Shown here: positions 3,538 through 50,280 of the stretch, in pieces | Layout: each line of letters opens with the position of its first letter | Position numbering within the stretch: the stretch's first letter is position 1 | Virus record (IMG/VR): IMGVR_UViG_3300047355_000120 | Strand: one strand, 5' to 3' | Origin: an uncultured virus (IMG/VR IMGVR_UViG_3300047355_000120) | Lineage: Duplodnaviria > Heunggongvirae > Uroviricota > Caudoviricetes | DNA length: 64,000 bases | Made by a program: the position numbers and the translations under genes | The notes under the pieces: model-generated | Seen by the model: the letters and a program-made list of their open reading frames with translations, nothing else | Told to the model about the DNA's origin: nothing | Database searches by the model: none

Positions 3538-3631
3538 GCTAGTGTGGCAATTATACAACGATAATATGATTAGTATGGAAGTTGCCAACATGCTACTAGA
3601 TCAACATTATAACAGAGTAAATAAGACATGA
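3530..3631 (+). CDS. small hypothetical protein (33 aa), not in ORF track
   Basis: Fills the gap; overlaps ligase stop and ends in ATGA overlap with next gene. Confidence 0.55.
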   Translation: MSKLVWQLYNDNMISMEVANMLLDQHYNRVNKT

Positions 3632-4197
3632 ATATATTTTATTTACACCCTGATCCAAATAAAGCTGCCGCTTATCATTATGACAAACATAAAGTTAAGA
3701 TGATACTCGAAGCAGCTCAAATGCTCTGTACAGCTCATCATCATTATGCTGAGTTGTATGAGTATGACGGTAGTTATATTCCTTACAAAAAAGCACATTA
3801 TAATCACCCTTCAACGCAATGGGCAAGAGAAAATATGCAAACGTATTTTTGGCTCTATGATTATATGATGGCGCTTGGTGAGGAATATACTAAACGTTAC
3901 AAGAAAAAGCACTTAAGTATAACTAAATGTGCTAAAGTATTGTTAAATCCTCCTGAAGGTATGCAAAATGGTCATTTTACAACGCCTCCACAATGTATGC
4001 CTGATGAGTATAAAGTAACTTGGAACAGTTTAAAAGCTTATTGGAATTATTATATTAACGATAAAAAATCTATAATTAATAAAGATGAAAAACCTTATAC
4101 TGAGTACCCTTTTAATGTCGACGATCTCGACGTCAGACTTGACCGTAACGGCAACTATATATCACGCTACCATCAAGCAAACAGACAGTACGCCTGA
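3628..4197 (+). CDS. pyrimidine-dimer DNA glycosylase / endonuclease V-like protein
   Basis: MNIFYL..DP...A....DKH.VKMILE.AQML, HYNHPS..WAR, PPQCMPD.YK family signature. Confidence 0.7.
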   Translation: MNIFYLHPDPNKAAAYHYDKHKVKMILEAAQMLCTAHHHYAELYEYDGSYIPYKKAHYNHPSTQWARENMQTYFWLYDYMMALGEEYTKRYKKKHLSITKCAKVLLNPPEGMQNGHFTTPPQCMPDEYKVTWNSLKAYWNYYINDKKSIINKDEKPYTEYPFNVDDLDVRLDRNGNYISRYHQANRQYA

Positions 4198-4571: not shown

Positions 4572-5212
4572 TGTCACATTATGTATCAATACCGCGTCAC
4601 TTATATTATTTAAACAAGAGGCGGATTGTATACAGACGTAATCCAATAACAGATAAGCCTACATTAGAGTTTGAGTACGGTAAATTTTATGAAGAAGGTA
4701 CTTATGAATGTTATGATCTGTTTCGTAGTAAAGCTAAAATTACTACATACAAATCATTAAAATGGCATCTGTTAGTCTTGTGGTATTTAAACCCACAACT
4801 AGACATGAATGAGTTTACAAAGCTATCTGAAACTATAGCTAATTATAAGTATGGATTTATTGCGTTTGATATACCTCCAGAATTACTTAAAAGAATAATA
4901 TATGATGTAAGCATGTGTGATCTTGAAGAACCACCTAAAAATAAACTAAGAAAAGTTATATTTAATGACTATTGCTCTTTAACTCTGTCAGAAAAATTAA
5001 CTATTGTAGGTCAATTAATAGGTAGATCAAAAAGAATACATGAAGATGATATTTACCAATGCATGTTAGATATAAATGACATGGGTAAAAAAATAACTAT
5101 AAATAGACTTGCAGGCCTGTTGAATTGTTCTGCTAGAACTATACATAGAAATATGGGCTATGAACTTAAAAAAGAAAAAGAACTTTTAAATCAATCAAAT
5201 GAAAAAATATAA
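4571..5212 (+). CDS. hypothetical protein with C-terminal HTH
   Basis: ITINRLAGLLNCSARTIHRNM helix-turn-helix. Confidence 0.65.
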   Translation: MSHYVSIPRHLYYLNKRRIVYRRNPITDKPTLEFEYGKFYEEGTYECYDLFRSKAKITTYKSLKWHLLVLWYLNPQLDMNEFTKLSETIANYKYGFIAFDIPPELLKRIIYDVSMCDLEEPPKNKLRKVIFNDYCSLTLSEKLTIVGQLIGRSKRIHEDDIYQCMLDINDMGKKITINRLAGLLNCSARTIHRNMGYELKKEKELLNQSNEKI

Positions 5213-5966
5213 TATACCTAATTATATTCGTTATAAAAACGATTTAATAATTAAACTAAAACTAATAGAAGATATTGATGTTAAATATTTAAGTCAGGAA
5301 CAATTGCAATGGAAATTTATGCTATTAGTAGAAAACATAGCTCGTAAATTCTCTACAACACAACAAGCATCAGGTGTTATGAGTATTAATGATCTTATAC
5401 AAGAAGGTAATTTAAGCTTAACTAAAGCTATTAGAAAAATAGACTGGGTTAGACTAAGTGAATCAGATGATCAAGAAAAAACATTAAAGTCTTTTTTATC
5501 TAAACGTATTAAAGGTGGTATAAGACGTGCTGTTGATATAAACAGAGGCGATATAAGAATACCTGAGCATAAACTTAATGAAATACGTAAAAACAATGGT
5601 AAAGATCAAAAGATGGTTGCTATGTTTTTTAATAGTATGTTTTTATCTATTGATGATAAACCTAAAAACACTGATGATGAAGAGTCTATGATATATCAAA
5701 TAGCAGATAAATCAGAGCCTTATAATATAGGTTTATTAAATGTTTATTTAACTAGTTTATTAAAAACTCATTTAAACGAAAAAGAATATGAGGTGTTAAG
5801 ATTAAGCTATGGTTTAGACTGCGAAAAGCATTCAGCTAATAAAATAGCAGAGATCTTAAACATTGAAGGAAGCAGTGCTTATGTACGTGTTTCAGAGCTT
5901 AAAAAGCAAGCTGTAGATAAATTAATTGATAGTGTAGATCACTCGCAAGTGATTGATTATCTGTAG
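5199..5966 (+). CDS. phage sigma70-family RNA polymerase sigma factor
   Basis: Region 2 DLIQEGNLSLTKAI, IRIPEH; region 4 LNEKEYEVLRLSYGL...IAEILNI...RVSELKKQAVDKL. Confidence 0.85.
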   Translation: MKKYNIPNYIRYKNDLIIKLKLIEDIDVKYLSQEQLQWKFMLLVENIARKFSTTQQASGVMSINDLIQEGNLSLTKAIRKIDWVRLSESDDQEKTLKSFLSKRIKGGIRRAVDINRGDIRIPEHKLNEIRKNNGKDQKMVAMFFNSMFLSIDDKPKNTDDEESMIYQIADKSEPYNIGLLNVYLTSLLKTHLNEKEYEVLRLSYGLDCEKHSANKIAEILNIEGSSAYVRVSELKKQAVDKLIDSVDHSQVIDYL

Positions 5967-6517: not shown

Positions 6518-7246
6518 ATGACTAAACAAGAGGTGTTAGATAAGCTTAAAATTGATGAGCATTACTACGGTGACTTTGGTAAACAATACCTTAGTAACTC
6601 AGACATATCAGCTTTGTTAAACAACCCTTTAGCACTTGGACAACAGTCACCGCCATCGGCTGCATTTTTAGTCGGTGGTTATTTTCACACAGCTATACTA
6701 GAGCCTAATAAGCTTAATAAGTATAAAGTTGTGAAATCGTCTACTAGAAATACTAAAGCTTATAAAGACATAGCTGGAGGAGAGTTATGTCTACTACAAC
6801 ATGAGGTTGACTCTATAGAATTAATGAGAGAAAAAATCATGAGTAATGACGTATGTAAAAGTTTAATAACAGGTAATGTTGAATATGAACAACCTGGTAT
6901 TGTAGAACTTGAAGGACAGATGTGGAAAGGTAAAGCTGATATAGTTAATCACGATGAAAAGTTAATCATTGATTTAAAAACTACAGCAGATCTTACTAAA
7001 TTTAAGTACTCAGCTTCTAAATACAATTACGATAGTCAAGCTTTTATTTATAGTAGTCTATTTGGTTATGAATTTATGTTTATTGTTATAGACAAAAAGA
7101 CACATCAAATAGGTATTTATGACTGTTCGCCTCAGTTTTATGAAACTGGGCAGGACAAGGTTAAAAGAGCCGTTGAGGCTTACGATCTGTTTTATAAGAC
7201 AGACAGTTTCGATCCGAAACAATATTTTATTAGTAAAACCCTTTAA
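6518..7246 (+). CDS. PD-(D/E)XK exonuclease (RecE/DUF3799-like)
   Basis: LSNSDI, G..FHTAILEP, KGKADIV, IIDLKTT, Y..QAFIY. Confidence 0.85.
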   Translation: MTKQEVLDKLKIDEHYYGDFGKQYLSNSDISALLNNPLALGQQSPPSAAFLVGGYFHTAILEPNKLNKYKVVKSSTRNTKAYKDIAGGELCLLQHEVDSIELMREKIMSNDVCKSLITGNVEYEQPGIVELEGQMWKGKADIVNHDEKLIIDLKTTADLTKFKYSASKYNYDSQAFIYSSLFGYEFMFIVIDKKTHQIGIYDCSPQFYETGQDKVKRAVEAYDLFYKTDSFDPKQYFISKTL

Positions 7247-7258
7247 TTTTATTTTATT

Positions 7259-7462
7259 ATGGCAAGAACAAGAAAAGTAACAACAAAACAATGTGCAATG
7301 ACTGGAATGAATTTTCCTGTAACTGAATTTTATAAGAACAATACAACTGCAGATGGCTTGCACCCATATGCTAAGAAAGCAGATAATTTCAGAAGAAGAA
7401 CTGGTGTAAATGCAGCAGATCTTAGAACTATGTTCACAAACCTATTTAATACAACAGCATAA
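7259..7462 (+). CDS. small hypothetical protein (degenerate zinc-finger-like)
   Basis: KQC...FPVTEFYK....DGLHPY; most Cys of the usual finger are absent. Confidence 0.6.
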   Translation: MARTRKVTTKQCAMTGMNFPVTEFYKNNTTADGLHPYAKKADNFRRRTGVNAADLRTMFTNLFNTTA

Positions 7463-7770
7463 TGGCATTAATATTAGCAGCAAGCATTAACTTAAATGAA
7501 ATACCTAAAGACAAGATCATTATTGGTAAGAAAGGTAAATACTTACCTATCAGTATTACTCTTAACGATGAGCTTGATCAGTTCGGTAATCAGGGTCCAG
7601 TCATTGTATCGCAAAGTAAAGAAGAACGTGAAGCGAAACAAGCAAAGACATACTTAGGTAATGTAAAATTAGTATGGACCAACGGAGAAGTTAAAAAATT
7701 CGATAACCCACAGCAGCAAGCAGCACCGCCTGTAGCAGCTGCAGCAATCGAAGATGATTTACCATTTTAA
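7462..7770 (+). CDS. single-stranded DNA-binding protein-like
   Basis: Acidic C-terminal EDDLPF tail; lies between recombinase and primase. Confidence 0.7.
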   Translation: MALILAASINLNEIPKDKIIIGKKGKYLPISITLNDELDQFGNQGPVIVSQSKEEREAKQAKTYLGNVKLVWTNGEVKKFDNPQQQAAPPVAAAAIEDDLPF

Positions 7771-7780
7771 ATAGTAATAC

Positions 7781-9496
7781 ATGCAAGTAAACAACACGGA
7801 GATTAATGGATTTTTAATCGACCAGTTTAACCAACATAAACTAGATGTAGGAAAGACGCAGGGGATTTGTCCCCTGTGTTCACATGATAGAAAGCCTAAA
7901 AACCAAAAGGCTAAATGTGCTAGTTATGATTGGGAACGAGGTTTGGGTACTTGCCATCATTGTGATTCATCATTCCAATTACATACGTATCAACGTAAAG
8001 GTGCTAGTGAAAAGACTTATGTAAGGCCTGAAAGTATAGAGGTAAAACCTCCTACTAGCAAAGTAATTGAGTGGTTTAAAACAAGAGGTATATCTCAGCA
8101 GACTCTTATCGATCTTCGGTGCGGTGAGGGTCCTGAGTTTATGCCACAGACCGGCAAGTCCGAGAATACAATTCAGTTCAATTATATAGTAGGCGATGAG
8201 TTAATCAATGTTAAATACAGAGATGGTCGTAAAAATTTTAAATTATATAAAGGTGCTGAAAAAGTATTTTATAATATAAATAGTATTGTAGGTTTTGATA
8301 CTTGTGTTATAACTGAAGGTGAAATGGATGTATTAGCACTACATGAAGCTGGAATATCAAATGCAATATCAGTACCTAACGGTGCAACTCTAAATTCTAA
8401 TAACTTAGACTATTTAGATAACTGTATAGATTACTTTGAAGATAAAGAAAAAGTAATACTAGCTGTAGATAATGATGAACCTGGTCAAGCTTTACAACAA
8501 GAACTTATTAGACGTCTTGGTGCTGAAGTTTGTTTCATGGCAAGTTTTGAAGATTGTAAGGATGCAAATGAATATTTAATAAAACACGGTAAGGAACAAT
8601 TAAAAAATAAGATTAATGATGCAAGACCTGTTCCATTAGAAAACGTAAAAACATTTAAAGATATTGAAGATGAAATTACAGATTTTGTTAAAAATGGTTT
8701 TAAGCCTGGGTACCAAATTGGCTTACCTAATTTTGATAATATTTTCTCTACTTATACTGGGCAGTTTATCACTGTTACTGGCATACCATCTAGCGGAAAG
8801 TCAGATTTCGTTGATCAGATGGTAGTAGGTTATAACCAAAGGTATCAATGGAAAACAGCTTTTGCTAGTCCTGAAAATGCTCCTACTTATTTACATGCTC
8901 ACAAGCTTATGCGTAAGATCTGGCAGGATATGCCAACAAGAAATGATATACATTCAGATAAATGGAATCAGATTGCAGAACATTGTAATGATAACTTTTT
9001 TCATATTGATATGGAACGTTATACTCTTGAGTCTGTGTTACGTAAAGGTGCTGAGCTAGTTAAACGTAAGGGTATTAAATGTCTTGTCATAGATCCATTT
9101 AATAAGATCAGAGATGTTGATTGTAAAACCGAGGATGTAAATAGATATACAATGGAATATCTAACTAAGATTGAAATGTTTTGTAAGAAATATGATGTTT
9201 TAGTTTTTATTGTAGCGCATCCAACTAAAATGTATAGAGATAAAGATGGTAAAATTGAAGAACCTACTATGTATAACATTAAAGGCGGTGGTGAATGGTA
9301 CGATGCAAGTTATCATGGTATACTGGTCCACAGAGATTATGAAGCTAAAACAGTTAAAGCAAAAGTACTTAAAGTAAAGTTTCAAAACCTAGGTGAAAAC
9401 GGAGCAGAAGCTCATTTTAAATGGGAACATAAATCAGGTTGTTTTATACCTCATCAATTAGCTGAGCTAGAAGAGGAATCAATGCCTTGGGATTAA
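7781..9496 (+). CDS. DNA primase-helicase (T7 gp4/Twinkle-like)
   Basis: CPLC..CHHC Zn domain; TOPRIM ITEGEMD/DNDEPG; Walker A GIPSSGKS; Walker B LVIDP. Confidence 0.95.
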   Translation: MQVNNTEINGFLIDQFNQHKLDVGKTQGICPLCSHDRKPKNQKAKCASYDWERGLGTCHHCDSSFQLHTYQRKGASEKTYVRPESIEVKPPTSKVIEWFKTRGISQQTLIDLRCGEGPEFMPQTGKSENTIQFNYIVGDELINVKYRDGRKNFKLYKGAEKVFYNINSIVGFDTCVITEGEMDVLALHEAGISNAISVPNGATLNSNNLDYLDNCIDYFEDKEKVILAVDNDEPGQALQQELIRRLGAEVCFMASFEDCKDANEYLIKHGKEQLKNKINDARPVPLENVKTFKDIEDEITDFVKNGFKPGYQIGLPNFDNIFSTYTGQFITVTGIPSSGKSDFVDQMVVGYNQRYQWKTAFASPENAPTYLHAHKLMRKIWQDMPTRNDIHSDKWNQIAEHCNDNFFHIDMERYTLESVLRKGAELVKRKGIKCLVIDPFNKIRDVDCKTEDVNRYTMEYLTKIEMFCKKYDVLVFIVAHPTKMYRDKDGKIEEPTMYNIKGGGEWYDASYHGILVHRDYEAKTVKAKVLKVKFQNLGENGAEAHFKWEHKSGCFIPHQLAELEEESMPWD

Positions 9497-9774
9497 TGAG
9501 TGCTGCTTGGCGTAAAAAAAAGGTAAACATCTTAGGGCCTGAATGGACTGATGAAAATACAGAGGCATATAAATGGTGTATAAACAATGGTGTTAAAATA
9601 TCTCCATGGGCTGCAAGTAGTGAACAAGATAATTACTACTGGTGGATTGATGTAGAAGTTAATGGAGCTAAAAAACGATCACCATTTAAATACAACGGTA
9701 AACAATTAAACGAAAAAATATTCGAATTATATAGATTTTATTATGATAAAAACAAAATTTCAAACAGCAAGTGA
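9496..9774 (+). CDS. hypothetical protein
   Basis: ORF track (start 9487); ATG at 9496 overlaps the helicase stop. Confidence 0.65.
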   Translation: MSAAWRKKKVNILGPEWTDENTEAYKWCINNGVKISPWAASSEQDNYYWWIDVEVNGAKKRSPFKYNGKQLNEKIFELYRFYYDKNKISNSK

Positions 9775-10393
9775 TGCTTTTAATTATTTCTTTCCATTGA
9801 TAATGTGGGACGGTATAAAGTTCGATAATACTATGGCTTTATTTAATATAGGTTTTTATATTAAAAAACCTTTAGACAATGATATATTAGCTAGTCACAG
9901 AAAATGGAATAAAGAATATGCTGAAGCTGAATGGCAATGGTACTTATCAGGTGATCCTAACGTAGATAAGTTAGGAGAGATATATGGTAGAGTGCCTGAG
10001 ATATGGCAACGAATGGTCGACGGTAATAATGAAGTAAGATCTAATTACGGTTGGCAATGGGAACGTAACTATCAATTAGATTATGTAGTTGCAAAGCTTA
10101 AGGATAATCCTAATACTAGACACGCGGCAATAAGTATATATGATGGTAAAGAACATCATTACTACGCTAAAGATACTCCATGTACTTATGCGGTTCAGTT
10201 TACAGTATTAAACAATAAACTAAATATGTCAGTTGTGATGCGTTCTAATGATCTCTGGTACGGTTTCTGTAATGATCAGTATTGTTTTTCAAAGCTACAG
10301 GAATTAGTCTCAGAGAGGACAGGATATGAGATCGGTACGTATTACCATTTCGCACATAACTTACATTTGTATAACGATAAAATAACAAAATAA
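9743..10393 (+). CDS. thymidylate synthase-superfamily enzyme, probably dCMP hydroxymethylase/methylase (T4 gp42-like)
   Basis: E.QWYLS, P.IWQ, SNYGW, PCTYAVQF, MRSNDLWYGFCND with Asp at the E. coli ThyA Asn177-equivalent position. Confidence 0.75.
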   Translation: MIKTKFQTASDAFNYFFPLIMWDGIKFDNTMALFNIGFYIKKPLDNDILASHRKWNKEYAEAEWQWYLSGDPNVDKLGEIYGRVPEIWQRMVDGNNEVRSNYGWQWERNYQLDYVVAKLKDNPNTRHAAISIYDGKEHHYYAKDTPCTYAVQFTVLNNKLNMSVVMRSNDLWYGFCNDQYCFSKLQELVSERTGYEIGTYYHFAHNLHLYNDKITK

Positions 10394-11163
10394 TGTATTA
10401 TTTATACCACATACCAGGTAAAAAGATAGGTGTTACACGTGATCTTAATACTCGTGTTACATTAATTCAGGGCTATAGCTCTAGTGAATATGAAGTTCTT
10501 GATCAGTCGGACGATATAGATTATATATCGGACAAAGAGATAGAACTTCAAAAGTCTTATGGCTATAAAGTAGATAGAAAGAAATATAAAAACCTTTTTA
10601 AGAAAATGAAAATAAACGTAACAGAACAAACTTCAACTTTTGCAGTTCCTTTAAACAAATTAAAAGGACATCTTATGGATAACATGAATATGAAATGGGA
10701 TACATCTCATGGTAAGTTCTACATAGATATGCAAACAATACAATGGATAATGGATAACGCTAAAGTTTCAATGTATAATGATAAGAGATCTTACATATAT
10801 AATAAAGCTTTTGCAGAGTACTTTAAAACTAGTACAATTATGGAAATACCAGACTATAATAAAAGTCAGGTTATGTTTGATAAAATTAGAACATGGGCTT
10901 ATGAAAGAGGTTTATATGAAAAAGGAAATCCTATGGTACAGTATGTTAAACTACAAGAAGAAGCTGGTGAACTAGCTAAAGCTTTATTAAAAGATGATCA
11001 ACCAGAAGTTATAGATGCTATTGGTGATATGGTTGTAGTGTTAACTAACTTAGCTCATCAACGAGGTGTTTATATTGAAACATGCATACAGTCTGCATAT
11101 GAAGTTATAAACCAAAGAACAGGTAAAATGATTAACGGAACATTTGTAAAAGATGAAAATTAA
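10393..11163 (+). CDS. GIY-YIG-like N-terminal domain fused to MazG-like NTP pyrophosphohydrolase
   Basis: N-term YYLYH...KIGVT.DL..R...E; C-term KLQEEAGELA...DAIGDMVVVL. Confidence 0.75.
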   Translation: MYYLYHIPGKKIGVTRDLNTRVTLIQGYSSSEYEVLDQSDDIDYISDKEIELQKSYGYKVDRKKYKNLFKKMKINVTEQTSTFAVPLNKLKGHLMDNMNMKWDTSHGKFYIDMQTIQWIMDNAKVSMYNDKRSYIYNKAFAEYFKTSTIMEIPDYNKSQVMFDKIRTWAYERGLYEKGNPMVQYVKLQEEAGELAKALLKDDQPEVIDAIGDMVVVLTNLAHQRGVYIETCIQSAYEVINQRTGKMINGTFVKDEN

Positions 11164-11437
11164 AACAGAAGATAAGATAGTAAAGGCAGTACTAAGGAAG
11201 ATGGACCAACGTAGTTTAATAGGCCAGAAAAAATATGGAGCTACAATGATGCAAGAAATTGAAGGTCAAGAAAAAGATTTAAATAGATTTTTAATTGATG
11301 TACAAGAGGAATTAATGGATGCATTATTATATATTGAAGCAGCTAAAAGATGTTTACAAGATGAGATAGAAGAGGTTGCATACAATAGGTTTACTAAAGA
11401 TGTAACTAATATAAACGTAAATGAAGAAGTCTTATAA
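11153..11437 (+). CDS. small all-alpha NTP-PPase-like protein
   Basis: R...GQKKYG.T...QEELMDALLY motif. Confidence 0.55.
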   Translation: MKIKTEDKIVKAVLRKMDQRSLIGQKKYGATMMQEIEGQEKDLNRFLIDVQEELMDALLYIEAAKRCLQDEIEEVAYNRFTKDVTNINVNEEVL

Positions 11438-11906
11438 ACGTAAAAGAGGACCAGTCCGAGCAAAAAAAGTAATATATGATGATATTAAATTTGCATCAGG
11501 ACTAGAAGTGTATATGTATAAAGCTTTGAAAGAAGCTAGAATCGTAGCTGAGTATGAGCCTACAAGCTATACTCTGCTTAACGGTTTTGATTATGAAGGT
11601 ATATGCTTTGAAAAACAAGCTAACGGTAAAGGTGAATACAAAGATCGAGGTTGTAAAAAGATTTTACCTATAAAATACAAACCAGATTTTGTAGGTAGAG
11701 ATTTTGTAATTGAATGTAAAGGTAGAGCTAATGAATCGTTTCCACTTAGATGGAAATTATTTAAATCATGGATAGCACAGCATTCACCTAGTATAGCACT
11801 GTTTAAACCTCAAAACCAAAAAGACTGTGATGAAACTATCAAGCAGATAGAAATCATGAGAAAAAATCTTAGAACAAATGCAAAGAAAAAACAAACTAGC
11901 CTCTAA
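11421..11906 (+). CDS. endonuclease I-like Holliday junction resolvase (PD-(D/E)XK)
   Basis: FASGLE, YEP, Y.PDF..IECKG. Confidence 0.8.
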   Translation: MKKSYKRKRGPVRAKKVIYDDIKFASGLEVYMYKALKEARIVAEYEPTSYTLLNGFDYEGICFEKQANGKGEYKDRGCKKILPIKYKPDFVGRDFVIECKGRANESFPLRWKLFKSWIAQHSPSIALFKPQNQKDCDETIKQIEIMRKNLRTNAKKKQTSL

Positions 11907-12042
11907 ACATATAGCTAGAACTAAATATAAGGAACGTAAGATCGATACTTATATTAAATGGACAGTTAATAAAAGAGGTTATTTAAAATGGAAGGATCTA
12001 ATTGCGATCCATAATAAATATAATATACAATGCTATGGGTAA
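11878..12042 (+). CDS. small basic hypothetical protein (54 aa), not in ORF track
   Basis: Hand translation MQRKNKLASK...; fills gap with overlaps at both ends. Confidence 0.5.
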   Translation: MQRKNKLASKHIARTKYKERKIDTYIKWTVNKRGYLKWKDLIAIHNKYNIQCYG

Positions 12043-12187
12043 ATCAAAACAATGGGAGTTGTCAGCTGGAGTGTTTCCAGGTATACTCTTTGGAATAAGA
12101 AGTTATGAAGACGGAGATTTTCAAGTAGATCACGTTTTATATTTAGGAATATTTGATATATGTTTAACTCTATACTATGAAGAATAA
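12035..12187 (+). CDS. small hypothetical protein (MGKSKQWELSAG...)
   Basis: ORF track (start 12002); ATG at 12035 preferred. Confidence 0.6.
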   Translation: MGKSKQWELSAGVFPGILFGIRSYEDGDFQVDHVLYLGIFDICLTLYYEE

Positions 12188-13166
12188 TATGAACGTACCA
12201 TTATTTACAGAAAGAATACCGTACAAGCCTTTTGAATATCCTGAGTACTATACTGAGGGTTGGTTAAAGCAAGCTCAAGCGTTTTGGTTACATACTGAAA
12301 TACCTATGAGTGGTGATGTTAAAGACTGGAATGAAAAATTAACTCCAGAAGAAAAAAACTTAGTAGGTAATATACTATTAGGTTTTGCACAAACAGAATG
12401 TGCAGTAAGTGATTACTGGACACAAAACGTCGTATCATGGTTTCCTAAACATGAGATACAGCAAATGGCTATGATGTTCGGCTCACAAGAAACAATACAC
12501 GCTGTAGCTTACAGTTATTTAAATGAAACACTTGGACTCGAAGATTACGAAGCTTTTCTCCATGAGCCTGCTACTGCTGCAAGGTTTGATAACCTGGTTA
12601 GTTATGGCGGGTCCGATCCTATTGGTATTGGTAAGTCTCTTGCTACTTTTTCTGCTTTTGCTGAAGGGGTTAGTTTATATTCTGCCTTTGCTGTATTATA
12701 CAGTTTTCAAATGAGAAACCTATTAAAAGGTATTGGTCAACAAATGAAATGGTCTGTAAGAGATGAATCATTACATAGTAAAATGGGTTGTCAACTATTT
12801 AGACATATGTGTTCGCAAATACCAGGATTAAAAGAAGAATGTAAAGAGCATGTATATGATGCAGCTTTAACTATGCACAATGCTGAAATGACTTATATAT
12901 CTAAGTTATTTGAAATGGGTGATATTGAAGGAATAACAGAATATGACCTTAAACATTTTATTAAAAAACGTACAGGTGATAAACTTAAAGAATTGGGCTA
13001 CAAAGCAGAAGGAAAATTTAAATTTGAATATGACCAAAAGTCAATTGACAAAATGGCTTGGTTCGACCATCTTACTGGGGGTCACACTCACACTGATTTT
13101 TTCGCTATTAGGCCGACTGACTATAGTAAAGCAAATGAAGGCGAAGACTTTGAAGATGTTTGGTAA
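12177..13166 (+). CDS. nrdB: class I ribonucleotide reductase beta subunit
   Basis: YKPFEYP, FW..TEI, ETIH...Y, AEGV.LYS.F, RDESLH, HTDFF. Confidence 0.95.
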   Translation: MKNNMNVPLFTERIPYKPFEYPEYYTEGWLKQAQAFWLHTEIPMSGDVKDWNEKLTPEEKNLVGNILLGFAQTECAVSDYWTQNVVSWFPKHEIQQMAMMFGSQETIHAVAYSYLNETLGLEDYEAFLHEPATAARFDNLVSYGGSDPIGIGKSLATFSAFAEGVSLYSAFAVLYSFQMRNLLKGIGQQMKWSVRDESLHSKMGCQLFRHMCSQIPGLKEECKEHVYDAALTMHNAEMTYISKLFEMGDIEGITEYDLKHFIKKRTGDKLKELGYKAEGKFKFEYDQKSIDKMAWFDHLTGGHTHTDFFAIRPTDYSKANEGEDFEDVW

Positions 13167-13414
13167 CAATAAAATTAAATGATATGAAAGAAAATAAATT
13201 AATATTAATGCAAAAAAAAGTAGATCAAATGGGTGTTGTTATAAATACTCTTATTGAAAAACTTAAACAAGTAGATAGTATGGCTAAAGGAACTTTAACA
13301 GCTTTTCAATTAAATATAGGTAAAGAAACTTGGGATAAATTAGTTGAAGAATTAAAAGATATAGAGTCTAGGCCAAAACCAGAAGAAAAAAAGTTTGAGA
13401 CTGATGTGGAATAA
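13160..13414 (+). CDS. hypothetical coiled-coil protein (start probably the internal ATG of MKENK)
   Basis: ORF track; lies between nrdB and nrdA. Confidence 0.6.
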   Translation: MVTIKLNDMKENKLILMQKKVDQMGVVINTLIEKLKQVDSMAKGTLTAFQLNIGKETWDKLVEELKDIESRPKPEEKKFETDVE

Positions 13415-15125
13415 TGAGTGGAAAAAAGGTGTTGATTACCCAAGCTGGGGAGACACTGATGTTTATAAAAAAACTATAGGTGGTGGTTATCTTTTAAAAA
13501 ATGAATCACCTAAAGATGCTTATCATAGAGTTTGTAATACTGTAGCAAGACGTTTAGAACGTCCTGATATGGCCGAAAAGTTTTTTGAATACATTTGGTC
13601 AGGTTGGTTATGTCTTGCGTCTCCTGTGTTGTCTAATACAGGAACAGACAGAGGTTTACCGATCAGTTGTTTCGGTATAGATGTTGCTGACAGTATATAC
13701 GATATAGGTAGTAAAAACCTAGAGATGATGCTACTCGCAAAGCACGGCGGTGGAGTAGGAATCGGAATTAATCAAATCAGACCCGCTAGTGCAAAAATTA
13801 AAGGAAATGGAACTAGTGATGGAGTTGTGCCTTTTTGTAAGATATACGATTCAACAATACTTGCCACTAATCAAGGATCTGTCCGACGAGGAGCTGCATC
13901 GGTTAATCTTAACATTGAACACCCCGATTTTGATGAGTGGCTCGAAATACGTGAACCTAAAGGAGACGTTAACCGTCAATCACTCAACCTGCACCAGTGC
14001 GCTGTGGTCGGCGACAAGTTTATGCGACGAGTTGAGTCAGGAGATGGAGCAGCTAGAAAACGTTGGGGAAAATTACTTCAAAAGCGTAAAGCTACTGGAG
14101 AACCTTACGTGTTATTTAAGGGGAATACAAACAAGTGTAACCCACCAGCTTACAAAAAGCACGGTTTAAAAGTACATATGACTAATATATGTAGTGAAAT
14201 TACATTACATACAGATGAGTCACACAGTTTCGTTTGTTGTCTATCTAGTTTAAATCTAGCTAAGTACGATGAATGGAAAGGAAGTAATCTAATACACGAT
14301 GCTATATGGTTTTTAGATGGCGTATTAGAAGAGTTTATACAGAGATCCAAAGGTAAAGTTGGATTTCATAATTCTGTAAGATCTGCTGAAAAAGGTAGAG
14401 CTTTAGGATTAGGCGTTTTAGGTTGGCACACGTATCTACAAGAAAAGGGCCTACCATTTGAAGGTTTATTATCACAATATGAAACAAGAAAAATTTTCTC
14501 ACAAATTAAAATCGAGTCTGAACGAGCTTCAATGTCTTTGGCTGAAGCTTTTGGAGAACCTCTTTGGTGTGTCGGTACTGGTTTTCGCAATACCCATCTT
14601 CGCGCTATCGCTCCCACTGTATCTAACAGTAAGCTTAGTGGAAACGTATCGCCAGGAATAGAACCATGGGCTGCAAATGTATTTACAGAACAAAGCGCTA
14701 AAGGTACTTTTATAAGAAAAAATCCAACATTAAAAAAAATATTACGCAAGCATAAAATAGATACTGAAAAAACATGGAATCAAATACTAAAAGACGGAGG
14801 ATCAATACAGGGATTAAAAGCATTAGACAAAATTACATACGGTCCTCACGATATACCGGTCAAAGAAATTTTCAAAACTTTCAAAGAAATTAATCAGTTA
14901 GAGTTAATTAATCAAGCGGGTATAAGACAACAATATATAGATCAAAGCGTAAGTTTAAACTTAGCTTTTCCTAGTGTTGCTACACCTAAGTGGATAAATA
15001 AAGTACATTTTGAAGCTTGGAAAAAAGGTATTAAAACCTTATACTATACTCGAACTGAGTCAGTGTTACGTGGAGATATTGCTGAACAAGCAATGGATGA
15101 CGGCTGTCTTAGTTGTGACGGATAA
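13404..15125 (+). CDS. nrdA: class I ribonucleotide reductase alpha subunit (no ATP cone)
   Basis: ASPVLSN, PISCF, GGGVG, TNICSEI, APTVSNS, LYY, C-terminal CLSCDG; ATG at 13404 (track start 13395). Confidence 0.95.
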   Translation: MWNNEWKKGVDYPSWGDTDVYKKTIGGGYLLKNESPKDAYHRVCNTVARRLERPDMAEKFFEYIWSGWLCLASPVLSNTGTDRGLPISCFGIDVADSIYDIGSKNLEMMLLAKHGGGVGIGINQIRPASAKIKGNGTSDGVVPFCKIYDSTILATNQGSVRRGAASVNLNIEHPDFDEWLEIREPKGDVNRQSLNLHQCAVVGDKFMRRVESGDGAARKRWGKLLQKRKATGEPYVLFKGNTNKCNPPAYKKHGLKVHMTNICSEITLHTDESHSFVCCLSSLNLAKYDEWKGSNLIHDAIWFLDGVLEEFIQRSKGKVGFHNSVRSAEKGRALGLGVLGWHTYLQEKGLPFEGLLSQYETRKIFSQIKIESERASMSLAEAFGEPLWCVGTGFRNTHLRAIAPTVSNSKLSGNVSPGIEPWAANVFTEQSAKGTFIRKNPTLKKILRKHKIDTEKTWNQILKDGGSIQGLKALDKITYGPHDIPVKEIFKTFKEINQLELINQAGIRQQYIDQSVSLNLAFPSVATPKWINKVHFEAWKKGIKTLYYTRTESVLRGDIAEQAMDDGCLSCDG

Positions 15126-15187
15126 TCAACGTTCGTTGGGTTGATCACTAACGGAGGAAATGAGTGGTTGGTGGGAGTTGATTATAT

Positions 15188-15221
15188 AAAAAAGGGGGCT
15201 ATTTTCATAGCTCCCTTTCTT
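15188..15221. terminator. bidirectional intrinsic terminator at the convergence of the two arms
   Basis: AAAAAA-GGGGGCTAT-TTTC-ATAGCTCCC-TTTCTT. Confidence 0.8.
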
Positions 15222-15235
15222 GTTACAGGAATTTT

Positions 15236-15259
15236 TGGGTATGGTGCCCATTTTTTTTT
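15236..15259 (+). terminator. second intrinsic terminator
   Basis: TGGGTA-TGG-TGCCCA followed by T9. Confidence 0.6.
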
Positions 15260-15267
15260 ATTCCTAG

Positions 15268-15591
15268 TTAGTTTTGAGATAGTAAAAAATATATTCTATT
15301 TTGAATTTCTTCTTTTGAAGCCGTTATTTTAAAACTTAAATTTGCATTCCATCGACCTCTTGGTTTACCATCTTTATCAAGTAATATAATTATTGGCACA
15401 GATTTTATTTGAGCTCTTAAAGAAGGTGTTTGATCTTCTAATAATGCATATTGTATTTTTGCCTCTTTAATACCTCTTAAATCAAAATTATTTCTTTGAT
15501 TCCACTGTGCATTTATATGCATTAAAGTATAATCCTGTGCTGTTACTAAAAAAGTGAACAACATAAATATAATTGTAATTAAATTTTTCAT
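15268..15591 (-). CDS. secreted thioredoxin-fold protein lacking CxxC
   Basis: Signal peptide ending TAQ; INAQWNQRN in place of WCxxC; IKSVPIIILLDKDGK cis-Pro motif. Confidence 0.6.
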   Translation of the reverse strand: MKNLITIIFMLFTFLVTAQDYTLMHINAQWNQRNNFDLRGIKEAKIQYALLEDQTPSLRAQIKSVPIIILLDKDGKPRGRWNANLSFKITASKEEIQNRIYFLLSQN

Positions 15592-15884
15592 TGGTATATT
15601 TTATCTTCTATTTTTTCTATTGATTCTTTATTGTCTAAAATATCTTCTTTTAAACCTTCAGTAGATTTTTCTATTTGTAAAATTGTAGAACGTATCAACT
15701 CATCTTTAAGTTGAAACTCCATTTGTTTTACAAACTCCTCAGGATTTGCTTTATTTTTAAGCTCTTGTATATCACTTTGCAAAGTAAACCACATACTTGC
15801 CAAAGCTATTACTCCTCCAACAATCATTCCAATTGTTTTAAGGTCTAGTTGTACTTGAGTGTCTTCTCCAATTTTTGTTGCCAT
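15588..15884 (-). CDS. single-TM coiled-coil membrane protein
   Basis: LDLKTIGMIVGG TM segment, then heptads. Confidence 0.7.
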   Translation of the reverse strand: MATKIGEDTQVQLDLKTIGMIVGGVIALASMWFTLQSDIQELKNKANPEEFVKQMEFQLKDELIRSTILQIEKSTEGLKEDILDNKESIEKIEDKIYQ

Positions 15885-15887
15885 GTT

Positions 15888-16187
15888 TTATCTTCTGTAA
15901 ATTTTATCTTCTAGTTTATCTAAACGTTTATCATGATCTTCAGCGAGCTTATCCATCATTTCTTCAAGATATAAAAGCTTTTGATCTATAACTTCATGCG
16001 ACTGTTGAGGCGGTAGTTTTTTAGCCTCTTCAATACCTTGTTTGTTTAACTGAATTTGCTCAGTCAAAGTAGTATAAGTCATTGTTATAGATATTAAACC
16101 ACCTACTATTAGTATAATAGTTTTTAAATCTAAACTTAAATCTGGCTTTCCATCACCGTCAATGTCTACACCTACTTCGTTTTTCAT
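15888..16187 (-). CDS. single-TM coiled-coil membrane protein, paralog of 15588-15884
   Basis: DIDGDGKPD motif; LDLKTIILIVGG; shared C-terminal EDKIY. Confidence 0.7.
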   Translation of the reverse strand: MKNEVGVDIDGDGKPDLSLDLKTIILIVGGLISITMTYTTLTEQIQLNKQGIEEAKKLPPQQSHEVIDQKLLYLEEMMDKLAEDHDKRLDKLEDKIYRR

Positions 16188-16574: not shown

Positions 16575-16693
16575 TTTTTCTTTTTAGATTTAGGTACACA
16601 ATTAGGTACTCTTCTGTTTCCTTTTTTCTTCATGCCGATCATTTCGTAACCAGTCCAGCATGGTCCTTTTTTTCCTTTTTTCTTTTTTTTCAT
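16571..16693 (-). CDS. small basic CWxGY...VPNCVP protein (40 aa), not in ORF track
   Basis: MKKKKKGKKGPCWTGYEMIGMKKKGNRRVPNCVPKSKKKK; overlaps both neighbours by 4 nt. Confidence 0.7.
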   Translation of the reverse strand: MKKKKKGKKGPCWTGYEMIGMKKKGNRRVPNCVPKSKKKK

Positions 16694-19600
16694 AGCTTTA
16701 ATTTTCCGGTTTTCTTTTTTGATTTTTTACTTTTAGGTTTTTTATATTTAGCATAAGGATCTAAACCTAAACTCCACTGATCCCATCCTAATGTTAAAGC
16801 TATAGTTTGCCAAGTTTCAGTTTGACTGTCTAACGCTACATCTAAGTTATTATATTTTTGAAATAATCTGTCTAACGGAATATTTGTTGTTGCTGACGTT
16901 AATTTACCTATAGCTAAATAAGCAGGGTTATCTAAACTTAACCCCATTTCCATTATTTCATCTTTATTATATTGATACGTTAATGCAGCAGATCTTAATT
17001 TATTTATTTTAGATGATATTGGAGGTGATAAACTTAAAGATTTTAATGCTGCAATTTCATAATCAGGTCTATTCTTTTTTGATTGTCTTACCGCTTCTAT
17101 TATAACATTTTTTACAGCAGCTGCTGCAGCACCACCAACACCTAAACCTCTTAAAAGTGAATCAGCCATACCGTTTCCGATACCTATAAGTTTGTCAGTT
17201 TCCTTTTTTTCTTTTTCATCTTCATCTTCTTCCCATATTAAAGCAAACAAAGCTTGCTGTAAAGCATTAAATGCAAAGTTTTGAACAGTACTATAATAGA
17301 CCAATTTAGACATGTTAGTTTTCCAATCACCTCTTTTATTTTTTAAATCTAAAAAAGCTTTTTTCATTAATCGAGAATATTGCATAGGTGTGTTAGCAAA
17401 AGCTAATATAACACGACCTAATGGTCCTGCTTGTTGTTGGCTAATTCTATCAGCTCTACTTGATTGCTGAGCTTCTTCAGTTAACTCTTGCCAGTCTAAT
17501 AAAGCTTTAGCTTTTGCATCAGCTTCTGACATACCTTGTTTTTTAAGAGCATTTATTCTGTTTCTTACCATACTTGCACCACCTATTGCAATAGCAAAAC
17601 TATCGGCAAGCTGTGTAGGTAAAAATCCTTTTGAAAGCAAATAACTTATAGCAGCTTTTGCCTTGTTTTTTGAACCTTTAACATAGTTAGCTATTTCACT
17701 AGCATTAACATCTGTTTTTAAACCAGATCGTCTTGATTTTAAAAAATCTGAGTTAAATAATTCTACAAAATCTGTCCAATATTGTTTTTGATTTAACAAT
17801 GTTTTAGCTACAGCAATTGGATTATTATCAGAAAAATTAATATAGTTTAATGCAGATATAGTTTGTAACACAGCAGATCTTGCATTAAAAAACATAATAG
17901 CACCAACTGAATTATTTATCCAATTCATAAAACTATTAACCAACCTATTAGTACCAAAGTTTCTATTAGTACCATTTTCCATACGGTACAACATATCCTC
18001 TAGTGCTTCTCTAAAATTACTACCGTATATACCTTCAATTTTATTTAAATTTTGTTCGCTAAAAATTTTATTTTTATTTTCAATCCATTGACTTAAAAAT
18101 TCTTTTCTTTTAAAATCTTTAGATTCTTGTTCAAGATCGCTTAAAATACTACCCGCATCCCAGTTATCTGTTGGTTGCACATAGCCATCTGGATTACCTG
18201 TTATAGAAGATATTTTTTTAGCATAATCTTTTATTCGTTCGTTTTTGTTAACAACATCAACTAATTTTTTAATATCATTTTTGTTAACTCCTGGAATATC
18301 ATAACCTGCTAAAGTCCACATATAAACTCTTATAGCGTCTTCATTTGTAAAACCTTTAAAAGTAGACTCTTTTTTTAACAGCTTATGGACATCTTTATAT
18401 TGATTTCTTACATCATTATATAAATTTCTAGTAGCATTTTGTGCTAAATTTAAAGCTTGCATTGCTTGGCCAAAGGGTTTTATTAAAGTTTTGTTAAAAA
18501 ACTCCATTTGTTTTTCACCTACTTTACCTTTGTCTAAAAACGAGTACAATAAACCTACAAAATCTTCAGCTGAAGGTGGTATAAAAAAAGTGTTTCTACC
18601 TATTTTAGCACCTAAAGCTTTTGATCTTTTTGGTGAATATATTTCATATATACCAACGCCTTTTGTTTGTTCTAGTATTTTATTAAATTCTCTACTCATA
18701 TCAGGTAAAGTACTTTCTCTAGCGTTTTCGTCAATTTCTACTTTAACATTAAAATCTTTTAACATTTTAGCAGCAAATTCTGATCTAGCAACCTCGTACA
18801 TTGTTTGATTTGTAAGCACACTATACGTATTTTTACCTATTTTAGGATCTAATAAAAATCTAAGATTTTTTAATCTGTTATTTCTACCACCTAGTTTATC
18901 TAATTTATCAGCTAATTTTTTTGGTATAAAAGATTGTTCAAAACCGTCTAATATACCTTGAATATCTTGATTAAATGTGTTATTAGCTATAGAATTTACT
19001 ATTGCCGATGTTAAATTAGATGCATCATAAACGTGTTCTCCTTTATAACCTTGTAAGTTTTTAGGAATATTTTGAGCACCATCAGTAAAATAAAAAGAAG
19101 TAAACGCTGCATAAGCCCTTGCTGAGAACACAGAGTTTGTTGTTAGTTGTAAATTTGTTATAACATCTTTAACAGCATCATCTCTAGTCATCTTACCATC
19201 TTTAACTTGTTTATCAACCCAGTCGTTCCAACTAGAATGCACAGCTTCCATTAATGCATGGCCTGCTTCTAATGCTTTTCTACCATCATTTCCAATAATT
19301 TTTCTTAATTTTGCAGCTTTTTCTTTCCCAGTTATGTTTTCATTAGCAATTTCAGAAGCAATATTTATTATGTGTCCAAGTTTATTAGCTGTTTTATTAG
19401 AAACCTCAAGATCACCTTTTATTTTATCAAACTTTTTCCATCTAGCTTTTGTTTCTGGGCTAGTAAATTCATCAAATTTATTATCTTTTATAGCTTGATT
19501 TATTTTATTTTCTTTAGTTTTTAAATTATCTTTATACGCTAAAGACCTAGCTCTATTTAATAAAAGTTTTTCTTTTGCAACACCATCTACTTCAACACCT

Positions 19601-34318: not shown

Positions 34319-35758
34319 TTAAAATTTAAGCCATTTAGATTTACCTCTCATAACCTGAATCAACTGATCAGATTTAAGATTAGATAATCTAATTTTAGCA
34401 TTTCTTAGTTTAGCACTTTTTTCTTTTTGAAATCTTTTTACTATATACTCCTGTATACCTCTAGTTACAGATATAATAGCATATAAAATATGTGCATATA
34501 AAGCTTCTTCGGCTAATTTAGGTATTCTAACATCTAAATCATAAGCATTTCCATCTGATATATATTCTAAAGTTATTAGTTTTTCAGCTAAATCACTACT
34601 AAAAGAAAACTTACCCTCTCTTTCGTTTATTGTAAACCAACCATTTTTTTGACTTGTTGGTGGGTTTAAACCATATCTTTGGCCTAAAGCAGTATCATAT
34701 AAACTATTATATAAAAGGTTAGCATTATCATATTCATTTAAAAAAGCCCCGCTAATTTTTCTTGGATTATTAGCTGCCCAAGCCGCATCAGTTTGAGATG
34801 TTCCAGTTATATTAGAATCTTTACTGTCCTGTGTAGGAACACCAGCGTCGTCTTGAACAGGGTTTTCATAAGGATTTGTTGTTAAGGTATTAGCTGGAAA
34901 AATTGTGTGTTGCACACCCATTTCATCTATCCAGGATAATCTAGTATAATTAACATAATCTTGAGGTATAATAACACTTAAAGCGCTGTTAACTGTTAAT
35001 TCTTGAGATTTAATACTTCTTAATGTATCGTAACTAAATTCTTGCAAACCACGTTTAGCGTGAAATATTACATCAGATCTTTTTACACTAGGTATAAGTT
35101 TTCCAGGACCAACATAAGCTATTAAAAAATTATCAATAGCATCTACTAGTCTAGTGTATTCATAACCGCCATAATTATCTTCAACAGCACTCTTATTCAT
35201 TTGTATTTTCAAATACGTTCCTAATGCTAAATAAGATGATACGGTAACTATATTACCAACTACAGACCAAGGTGAAGCAGATTTTAAACTTAAATTAGTA
35301 CCGGGATTTGCGGCTGGAATACTAACTACAATGTTAACAATAAAGTTTTTATTATCTACAACAGATACAACAGTTCCATAAGTAACGTTACCAGCAGTGT
35401 TTTGTATAAGCATACCTGGGACAACATTATCATTAGCAACTAGAATAGTCATTGTTTGGTTGGTTTCAACAGGATTAAGAACTGCTAAACCCGCAATAGG
35501 TGCGACAACTGTAGTATTAGCATTAGCTGCTGAAGGAGTTAGTTCTAGCCAATTTAAAGCGTCTGAAGATGTATATATTTTAAAATTATTTAAAATATAA
35601 TTGTTATTTAAAGGGTCTGAACTTCCAAATACTAAATCAGTATTAAAAGTACTAGTAAATGTTTGACCTGCACCTGCTGTGTCTATATAAAACTGCTGAG
35701 CTCCAGCGTAATATTGTCTATTTGTTTCGGTTATTAAACCACCATTAGGTATAGGCAT
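34319..35758 (-). CDS. neck/tail ring structural protein
   Basis: Synteny; DVIFHAKRGLQEFSYD, IPQDYVNY, LEYISDG. Confidence 0.65.
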   Translation of the reverse strand: MPIPNGGLITETNRQYYAGAQQFYIDTAGAGQTFTSTFNTDLVFGSSDPLNNNYILNNFKIYTSSDALNWLELTPSAANANTTVVAPIAGLAVLNPVETNQTMTILVANDNVVPGMLIQNTAGNVTYGTVVSVVDNKNFIVNIVVSIPAANPGTNLSLKSASPWSVVGNIVTVSSYLALGTYLKIQMNKSAVEDNYGGYEYTRLVDAIDNFLIAYVGPGKLIPSVKRSDVIFHAKRGLQEFSYDTLRSIKSQELTVNSALSVIIPQDYVNYTRLSWIDEMGVQHTIFPANTLTTNPYENPVQDDAGVPTQDSKDSNITGTSQTDAAWAANNPRKISGAFLNEYDNANLLYNSLYDTALGQRYGLNPPTSQKNGWFTINEREGKFSFSSDLAEKLITLEYISDGNAYDLDVRIPKLAEEALYAHILYAIISVTRGIQEYIVKRFQKEKSAKLRNAKIRLSNLKSDQLIQVMRGKSKWLKF

Positions 35759-35764
35759 AATTTA

Positions 35765-50023: not shown

Positions 50024-50280
50024 AATACAACCACAACATGATCTACTTTTACCACGCTGTAAATGTCTTTTTTTATTTCTATTTGATGTGAATTATTTTT
50101 ATCAAAATATATAATATTACCTTTTTTTATACCTAAAACTTCATTACCTGCAGATATTACAGTTGCTTCTTCATACCTTATATCTTCTCTTTGTTTTTCT
50201 GCTAACAATAACCCGCCTTTAGTTTCAGACACACCTTGTTTTACAGCTTGTATAATTAAATTTCTACCTATTGCCTTCAT
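50020..50280 (-). CDS. groES: co-chaperonin GroES
   Basis: Mobile loop ETKGGLLL, VISAG.EV..IKKG. Confidence 0.85.
   Translation of the reverse strand: MKAIGRNLIIQAVKQGVSETKGGLLLAEKQREDIRYEEATVISAGNEVLGIKKGNIIYFDKNNSHQIEIKKDIYSVVKVDHVVVVL

Follow-up and report, generated by a model that had tools for sequence, protein, structure and literature searches.

Does a small protein that resembles thymidylate synthase make thymidylate for an infecting phage, or does it alter the cytosine of the phage's own DNA? This question is raised by a stretch of 64,000 nucleotides (the window, meaning the whole stretch that was analysed) from the uncultured Caudoviricetes virus IMGVR_UViG_3300047355_000120 of IMG/VR, in which an open reading frame (ORF) at 9743-10393 encodes the thymidylate-synthase-like protein and is directly followed by a gene for a fusion protein with a MazG domain (Table 1). 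Cytosine hydroxymethylation of the T4 type has been textbook knowledge since T4, and the marine lineage described here is a further case of a kind of system that is already known. A first-pass annotation of the sequence had claimed that the protein is specific for deoxycytidine monophosphate (dCMP) rather than deoxyuridine monophosphate (dUMP) and that it modifies C5 of cytosine for a modified genome. The sequence and structure tests agree with a dCMP-specific enzyme and narrow its product to the hydroxymethyl form, whereas a test based on restriction sites gave no support for protected DNA. We infer that the enzyme very likely acts on a cytosine nucleotide and, with good but lesser confidence, that its product is 5-hydroxymethyl-dCMP and that the pathway works as proposed below.

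Fold, active site and family of the short enzyme

The ORF sits between the primase/helicase gene and the ribonucleotide reductase genes, and the assignment of its product to the thymidylate-synthase fold and family is secure, with matches to Pfam PF00303 at 3.1e-24 and to PHROG 160 at 2.2e-40 and an AlphaFold2 model of the 216-residue protein with a pLDDT of 96.6 and a pTM of 0.93. The best PDB sequence match found with HMMER is T4 dCMP hydroxymethylase (1b49, 4.6e-19), followed by MilA (5b6d, 1.5e-17), and ThyA proteins score lower (1.5e-14 for the best of them and approximately 5e-10 for E. coli ThyA). Foldseek also ranks MilA (TMq 0.90, root-mean-square deviation 1.9 Å) and then T4 dCMP hydroxymethylase at the top, with the AfhB structures (9iqu, TMq 0.83; 9iqc, 0.86) and the ThyA structures (approximately 0.79) close behind; thus, the fold alone leaves the chemistry undecided.

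The deciding evidence for the enzyme class is the set of active-site residues, by which the query fails the marker of each rival chemistry. Cys146 (E. coli numbering) is given as the catalytic residue, the change of Asn177 to Asp as selecting dCMP, the change of Leu143 to Asp or Glu as correlating with hydroxymethyl or other non-methyl products, and the change of Asp169 to Asn as the mark of 5-hydroxy-dCMP synthases (Lee et al. 2026, PMC13326640), while positions 177 and 147 are reported as the top residues separating cytosine-modified from unmodified virome contigs (MetaGPA, eLife 2021, PMC8670742). The Asp that the first-pass annotation had placed at the position of E. coli Asn177 was confirmed as Asp178, in the local reading tac ggt ttc tgt aat gat cag (Y G F C N D Q): it falls in the Asn177 column of a MAFFT alignment with E. 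coli ThyA (from NC_000913) and, in the HMMER alignment to 1b49 (query MRSNDLWYGFCND over T4 MRSNDVVFGFRND), on the Asp of the RND of T4. The segments said in the same annotation to resemble gp42 also align in the 1b49 alignment, as EWQWYLS/ELEWYKS, PEIWQ/PKIWQ, SNYGW/SNYGW, and CTYAVQF/CTNTVQY (query/T4).

Conservation was read from an alignment of 52 relatives that reaches down to 30% identity. Asp178 is invariant over this whole range and Asp occupies the 177 column in all 125 metagenomic rows tallied, with one further row outside the tallied slice (P0001) carrying the same signature; therefore, Asp at this position is not a matter of chance. At the 143 column, Asp is found in 120 of the 125 metagenomic relatives. 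Moreover, Trp88 (E. coli Trp80) and Glu63 (E. coli Glu58) are at least 90% conserved among the aligned relatives, and the contacts with the folate pterin, Asp169 and Trp80, are kept.

Sixteen active-site positions (58, 80, 94, 126, 127, 143, 146, 147, 165, 166, 167, 169, 173, 177, 207, and 209 in E. coli numbering) were compared with those of reference proteins taken from their genome records. The query reads EWYRHDCTMRSDGDHY and T4 gp42 reads EWYRRDCTMRSDGDHY, with EWYRRLCHQRSDGNHY in E. coli ThyA and RB69 Td, EWYRRNCPLRSDGDHY in the homologue of Xp12 (a phage with 5-methylcytosine), EVYRRECTMRSNVDHF in the 5-hydroxy-dCMP synthase RB69 gp48, and EMYRQDCNNRSDGNHY in the dUMP hydroxymethylase SPO1 gp29. 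The query is identical to T4 gp42 at 15 of the 16 positions, including Cys146, Asp177, Asp143, Asp169, Thr147, and Met165. Asp143 is present in T4 gp42 and in the thymidylate synthase homologues of four phages of the 5-hydroxymethyldeoxyuridine lineage (SPO1, ViI, PhiW-14, and M6); elsewhere in the alignment, position 143 is Leu in both true thymidylate synthases and Asn in the Xp12 homologue.

In ThyA, hydride transfer takes place in an active site that the C-terminus has closed, and thymidylate synthases without a C-terminus cannot complete this transfer. After the position of Tyr209, the query has 6 residues, compared with 28 in T4 gp42, 55 in E. coli ThyA, 12 in RB69 gp48, and 61 in the Xp12 homologue. 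Most of the best 120 relatives have lengths of 213 to 228 residues and, therefore, the short tail belongs to the family and does not reflect a truncation. The near absence of this lid and the Leu143-to-Asp exchange fit a hydroxymethylation, in which water adds to the methylene intermediate.

A phylogeny with ThyA, gp42, and dUMP hydroxymethylases, which the first-pass annotation had named as a check, puts the query on the gp42 side. In a careful maximum-likelihood tree of 50 rows, from which BF503P2_b (a very long branch) and about half of the metagenomic representatives were left out, an 87/96 split leaves the 12-row clade of the query (support 100/99) and the T4 gp42 clade (99/92) on one side, and the opposite side holds ThyA with Xp12 (100/99), the dUMP hydroxymethylases (100/98), and RB69 gp48. 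The grouping was unchanged in a quick tree of 75 rows, with weaker support of the backbone. Since T4 gp42 and RB69 gp48 are long branches, the tree is used as supporting evidence only.

The family is large, with relatives encoded by 533 stretches in IMG/VR and over 8000 related proteins at E values of 0.001 or below in a metagenomic collection, the best 120 of which are 68-97% identical to the query. The nearest named phage proteins, at 46% identity, come from Bacteroides phages and already bear the annotation deoxycytidylate 5-hydroxymethyltransferase. Literature searches that combined dCMP hydroxymethylase with Flavobacterium or with MazG, Cellulophaga phages with thymidylate synthase and MazG, and marine viromes with 5-hydroxymethylcytosine (5hmC) found nothing on this marine lineage. 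The Bacteroides phage BF503P2 has a second, divergent thymidylate-synthase-like gene (34973-35779 of its record) 2 kb upstream of the query-like copy, with a dUTPase gene in between; the divergent copy has Leu for both Glu58 and Gly173 and keeps Cys146, Asp143, and Asp177.

Rival chemistries at the active site

Three other chemistries have been considered for a protein of this fold. Most pipelines would annotate the gene as an ordinary thymidylate synthase, with an auxiliary metabolic role in raising the supply of deoxythymidine monophosphate, and relatives are indeed named 'thymidylate synthase' in the protein collection, as are PHROG 160 and PF00303 themselves. Nevertheless, the protein falls far short of the cut-offs of all eight NCBIfam thymidylate-synthase models (best score 74.5 bits against a cut-off of 327), the Asn177, Leu143, His147, and Gln165 of thymidylate synthases are Asp, Asp, Thr, and Met in the query, and the C-terminal lid differs. 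Moreover, MW202828.1, a phage from a spring-water metagenome that is the best named match of the terminase (63% identity), carries ThyX in place of the pair formed by the thymidylate-synthase-like and MazG genes, with no thymidylate-synthase-like gene annotated, and a role in thymidylate supply is scarcely credible. A dCMP methyltransferase of the Xp12 type would perform a reductive methylation to 5-methyl-dCMP and give a genome with 5-methylcytosine; Asp177 is common to the query and the Xp12 homologue, N177D mutants of ThyA make 5-methyl-dCMP (as cited in PMC8670742), and the first-pass annotation had left a methyl product open. The Xp12 homologue, however, groups with ThyA, away from the query, and combines N143, P147, and L165 with its 61-residue tail, whereas the query combines D143, T147, and M165 with a tail of 6 residues. 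With so short a C-terminus, a thymidylate synthase would be unable to finish hydride transfer, and a methyl product seems quite improbable.

The remaining chemistry is that of a flavin-dependent dCMP hydroxylase, a 5-hydroxy-dCMP synthase such as RB69 gp48 or HY126 AfhB, which would agree with the match of the AfhB structures to the model and with the features that are common to both, namely a short protein of this fold with a short tail, Asp177, an acidic residue at 143, Thr147, and Met165. Yet the diagnostic D169N change (the criterion of PMC13326640) is missing from the query, where Asp170 is invariant in the family, and Trp80, Gly173, and Tyr209 of the query stand against Val, Val, and Phe in RB69 gp48. 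Furthermore, RB69 gp48 lies across the tree split from the query and no glycosyltransferase genes were seen in the PHROGs and Pfam scans, so that a flavin-dependent hydroxylation can be regarded as very improbable. The preferred reading of the enzyme is, thus, that of a dCMP 5-hydroxymethylase.

The MazG fusion, the proposed pathway and the virion DNA

The start codon of the fusion gene overlaps the stop codon of the thymidylate-synthase-like gene as TAATG, and this arrangement of neighbours is conserved. In a sample of 80 of the 533 IMG/VR stretches, the ORF caller found the thymidylate-synthase-like gene in 73 (it was missed in L014, L030, L031, L034, L035, L055, and L058), and 3 of these 73 loci end at the gene; in all 70 loci with downstream DNA, the next gene is a homologue of ORF 10393-11163. 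The fusion protein matches the Pfam families PRA-PH at 5e-06 and MazG at 1.2e-04 and the PDB entry 1vmg at 2.5e-07. A Pfam search of 32 of its relatives gave the MazG domain in all 32, with T5orf172 in 5 and MUG113 in 3 (both of the GIY-YIG clan), these latter matches being weak (best E 0.002), and T5orf172 appears in 11 to 48% of the members of look-alike clusters in the Atlas. The first approximately 150 residues (10393-10842 of the window, plus strand) form a conserved domain whose invariant residues include Tyr5, Gly13, Arg21, and Glu49. A nuclease-like domain fused to MazG was not met in those parts of the literature that were compared here. In T4, the gene for the deoxycytidine triphosphatase (dCTPase), gene 56, adjoins the GIY-YIG gene segF.

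Thymidylate-synthase and PRA-PH (PF01503) domains co-occur in cytosine-modified virome contigs according to the MetaGPA study (PMC8670742), and the gp56 homologues of RB69 and DLP3 match structures of dCTP pyrophosphatase and nucleotide pyrophosphohydrolase (PMC13326640, Table 1). On the strength of these observations, the MazG domain is read as a likely candidate for the dCTPase of the phage.

The proposed reaction follows that of T4 gp42. Cys147 would attack C6 of the cytosine ring, and Asp178 would protonate and hydrogen-bond N3/N4 of cytosine, thereby selecting dCMP over dUMP. Methylene-tetrahydrofolate would give the one-carbon unit, with its pterin held by Asp170 and Trp88, and water would then add to the exocyclic methylene without any hydride transfer, in an active site that would be opened by the exchange of the water-excluding Leu143 for Asp144 and by the near absence of the C-terminal lid. 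The MazG partner, whose gene would be translationally coupled to that of the enzyme, could hydrolyse deoxycytidine triphosphate (dCTP), and perhaps deoxyuridine triphosphate, to the monophosphate, thereby supplying the hydroxymethylase and at the same time excluding plain cytosine from phage DNA. The ribonucleotide reductase of the same early block would supply deoxynucleotides, the product would be phosphorylated and polymerised by host enzymes or by phage proteins that escaped recognition, and the progeny DNA would carry 5hmC as protection from host nucleases. Of this scheme, the fold, the active-site signature, the place in the tree, and the conserved pairing of the genes are observed, whereas the substrate, the product, the dCTPase role, and both the presence and the extent of a modification in virion DNA are inferred.

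Palindromic restriction sites were examined by comparing their observed counts with Markov-expected ones in the window and 75 related loci (among L002-L081). The site of EcoRV, GATATC, is the most avoided palindrome, with no copy in the 64 kb window against 15.6 expected, a pooled ratio of observed to expected of 0.21, and zero copies in 52 of the 75 loci. EcoRV cuts 5hmC DNA (T4gt) completely, as listed in Table S1 of Flodman 2020 and, therefore, the avoidance of GATATC fits, for that one site, a genome with 5hmC. The 4-bp sites GATC, CCGG, and GCGC are not avoided (pooled ratios 0.93 to 1.17). In the genome of MW202828.1, GATC occurs 0 times against 202 expected and CCGG 0 times against 26 expected; this phage is not a clean control because its host differs.

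Several observations weigh against cytosine hydroxymethylation and the pathway built on it. The sole mismatch to gp42 among the 16 positions is Arg127, which is His in the query, and the tail of 6 residues would make the holding of folate less certain; the flavin-carrying 5-hydroxy-dCMP synthase of RB69 is short-tailed too (12 residues). The 87/96 split of the tree is below the strong-support threshold of the tool, and T4 gp42 is a long branch. The sequence of the MazG domain does not reveal its substrate, and hhalign does not link the fusion to T4 gp56 at the sequence level (probability 1.2%); a search of the T4, SPO1, Xp12, and RB69 genomes with a profile of the fusion likewise gave no match. 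No gp1-like deoxynucleoside monophosphate kinase was found, the sole true Walker A motif among the 72 ORFs of the window being that of the primase/helicase, and family A DNA polymerase, the only polymerase family tested there, is absent from all five complete relatives (G002-G006). As for the restriction sites, avoidance extends to GGTACC (0.31), GAATTC (0.36), GGATCC (0.40), and GAGCTC (0.51), even though 5hmC blocks the corresponding enzymes in vitro, and the avoidance of sites that are cut in 5hmC DNA does not exceed that of blocked sites (5 versus 46 sites, Mann-Whitney p = 0.69). Site avoidance, then, neither supports nor refutes modification.

The PHROGs and Pfam scans of the window gave no kinase families, the part of the complete relative G002 that lies beyond the window offered no candidate kinase, and the PHROGs scans of the window named no DNA polymerase. 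The phage seems to bring its own primase/helicase but to rely on the polymerase of the host. In the absence of a recognised phage kinase or polymerase, the kinases and the replisome of the host would need to take the modified nucleotide as a substrate. Some incorporation of the modified nucleotide did occur without a phage kinase in experiments described by Lee et al. 2026 (PMC13326640), and handling by the host alone is, therefore, possible; nevertheless, reliance on host enzymes makes a full replacement of cytosine less certain. The first-pass annotation had seen no glycosyltransferase, and none was named in PHROGs scans of 61 ORFs or in Pfam scans, in which many ORFs matched nothing.

These considerations bear on a further explanation, in which 5-hydroxymethyl-dCMP is made and the virion DNA is substituted in part or not at all, with the product serving another purpose or competing with dCTP for want of dCTP removal and of a dedicated kinase. 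It would account for the lack of a kinase, for the continued avoidance of several cytosine-containing 6-bp palindromes whose enzymes are blocked by 5hmC, and for a MazG domain whose substrate cannot be read from its sequence. However, the strictly conserved and translationally coupled pair is an arrangement tied to selectable cytosine modification in viromes (PMC8670742), and GATC, CCGG, and GCGC are not avoided, in contrast to the complete lack of GATC and CCGG in the ThyX-carrying relative. Such an outcome is unlikely, albeit to be taken seriously. A virion DNA that carries 5hmC is, on balance, the favoured expectation, held with some reserve, and a complete replacement of cytosine is doubtful.

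A bolder joint reading of both genes would be that of a two-gene cytosine-replacement module without kinase and without polymerase, in which the thymidylate-synthase core makes 5-hydroxymethyl-dCMP, the nuclease-like domain of the fusion attacks unmodified, cytosine-containing host DNA (like the GIY-YIG endonuclease II of T4), the MazG domain destroys dCTP, and the host replisome and kinases build hydroxymethylcytosine DNA. Taken as a whole, this combination is improbable. If it were true, unglycosylated 5hmC would rank with the most common modified bases of viral DNA in the ocean, since the module is a fixed feature of a phage group represented by hundreds of contigs in IMG/VR and by thousands of proteins in metagenomes.

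Should the hydroxymethylase function itself prove true, the DNA of a very common marine phage group would carry 5hmC, and the 'thymidylate synthase' calls of annotation pipelines would mistake an anti-restriction DNA-modification gene for a nucleotide-supply gene. Moreover, these phages would be under-sampled wherever a library method or an enzyme is sensitive to modified cytosine, and their interplay with flavobacterial restriction systems and modification-dependent nucleases would need rethinking. With 216 residues and no C-terminal lid, the enzyme is about the smallest of its fold, and this small size makes it a useful natural case for telling the parts of the fold that hydroxymethylation requires from those required by reductive methylation.

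Gene content, host and known systems

The window is nearly a whole phage genome. The portal, the large terminase, virion proteins, and tail fibres are encoded on the minus strand, and the PHROGs and Pfam scans place a ligase, an Erf-like annealing protein, an exonuclease, the primase/helicase, and the ribonucleotide reductase in an early block on the plus strand. The lengths of related IMG/VR contigs with a completeness rating of 100% range from 67.7 to 71.5 kb; approximately 5 kb of the genome lies outside the window, a part that in the complete relative G002 consists only of small ORFs and tail-fibre genes. The nearest record (G001), a fragment of 42.6 kb, is without the thymidylate-synthase-like gene, and a megablast search of positions 7000-16000 of the window against named phages gave no match. 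A terminase search led to 87 named phage records, those of phages of Flavobacterium (68), Cellulophaga (15), Tenacibaculum (2), and Maribacter (1) and of one uncultured phage; given the dominance of Flavobacterium and Cellulophaga phages among these sequence matches, the host is very probably a member of the Flavobacteriia.

Table 1. Coordinates of the genes and codons discussed, counted from the first nucleotide of the window
Feature	Position	Strand	Remarks
T4 endonuclease V-like repair enzyme	3628-4197	+	Pfam Pyr_excise (pyrimidine dimer DNA glycosylase) at 1.7e-06
Sigma-factor-like protein	5199-5966	+	PHROG 351 at 1.2e-16; matches to Sigma70 region 2 and region 4 weak
DNA primase/helicase	7781-9496	+	PHROG 239 at 5.6e-83; replication block, conserved upstream neighbour of the thymidylate-synthase-like gene (synteny)
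Short thymidylate-synthase-fold enzyme, predicted dCMP 5-hydroxymethylase	9743-10393	+	216 residues, ATG start, TAA stop
D144-T-P-C147: Asp at E. coli Leu143 position and catalytic Cys (E. coli Cys146 / T4 Cys148)	10172-10183	+	Both at least 90% conserved
Asp170 codon, E. coli Asp169 position, kept as Asp	10250-10252	+	Invariant among aligned relatives
Asp178 codon (gat), pyrimidine-specificity residue (E. coli Asn177 / T4 Asp179)	10274-10276	+	Invariant in 52/52 relatives
Fusion of N-terminal T5orf172/GIY-YIG-like and C-terminal MazG/PRA-PH pyrophosphohydrolase domains, candidate dCTPase	10393-11163	+	256 residues
Conserved ORF, two-helix hairpin model	11153-11437	+	94 residues; invariant KYG, Glu35, Asp49, and QEE.MD (alignment)
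Ribonucleotide reductase small subunit	12177-13166	+	PHROG 86 at 1.1e-66; early block, deoxynucleotide supply
Ribonucleotide reductase large subunit	13395-15125	+	PHROG 84 at 1.2e-147
2623-residue ORF in virion gene block	16690-24561	-	Without PHROG or Pfam match
GroES-like gene	50020-50280	-	Counterpart in MW202828.1
GroEL	50264-51811	-	PHROG 5725 at 2.1e-130

The conserved 94-residue ORF that follows the fusion gene was considered as a second nucleoside triphosphate pyrophosphatase and rejected, with hhalign probabilities of 1.8% against the MazG fusion and 0.5% against T4 gp56. A PDB sequence search up to an E value of 10 gave no match, and the ORF matched no family of Pfam or NCBIfam; its AlphaFold2 model (pLDDT 69) has no Foldseek match, and the Atlas gave only unnamed viral clusters. 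Among the other genes of the window, the GroEL and GroES-like pair has counterparts in the freshwater relative MW202828.1, which likewise has both, and a gene of 3859 residues lies there at the place corresponding to the 2623-residue ORF.

The closest of the known systems is that of T4, in which gp42 (deoxycytidylate 5-hydroxymethyltransferase; PDB 1b49/1b5d, 6a9a, 6l18) acts with the gp56 dCTPase, the gp1 deoxynucleoside monophosphate kinase, and glucosyltransferases. The fold, 15 of the 16 active-site positions, the side of the tree, and a pyrophosphatase gene nearby are common to both. The query differs in being approximately 27% identical, in its length (216 versus 246 residues), in its tail (6 versus 28 residues), and in the replacement of Arg127 by His. 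Unlike T4, its phage has no recognised gp1-like kinase, glucosyltransferase, or phage DNA polymerase in the searches of the window and its relatives, and its pyrophosphatase, unlike gp56, is fused to a T5orf172-like domain and has no sequence relation to gp56. The points of interest that distinguish the marine lineage are its abundance, the minimal size of the enzyme, the lack of a recognised kinase or polymerase, and the fusion of a nuclease-like domain to MazG.

MilA, the cytidine monophosphate (CMP) 5-hydroxymethylase of mildiomycin biosynthesis (PDB 5jnh, 5b6d), is the best structural match of the model and likewise carries Asp at positions 177 and 143 (PMC13326640). It is, unlike the query, a bacterial enzyme of an antibiotic pathway, has approximately 320 residues, and prefers the ribonucleotide CMP; since the query is a phage protein encoded in a block for DNA replication and ribonucleotide reduction, dCMP is a likelier substrate for it than CMP. 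The 5-hydroxy-dCMP synthases RB69 gp48, DLP3 gp80, and HY126 AfhB are, like the query, short phage enzymes of this fold, and act on dCMP, but they carry Asn169 and use flavin and O2, as described in PMC13326640. The thymidylate synthase homologue of Xanthomonas phage Xp12, a presumed dCMP methyltransferase in a phage whose genome has 100% 5-methylcytosine (the base itself as given by Flodman 2020), resembles the query in Asp177 and represents a pre-replicative cytosine modification by a thymidylate synthase homologue, whereas it differs in its ThyA-like position in the tree and its full C-terminal tail. Finally, the locus resembles the modified contigs of MetaGPA (PMC8670742) in its adjoining thymidylate-synthase and PRA-PH Pfam families, in Asp177, and in a residue other than His at position 147.

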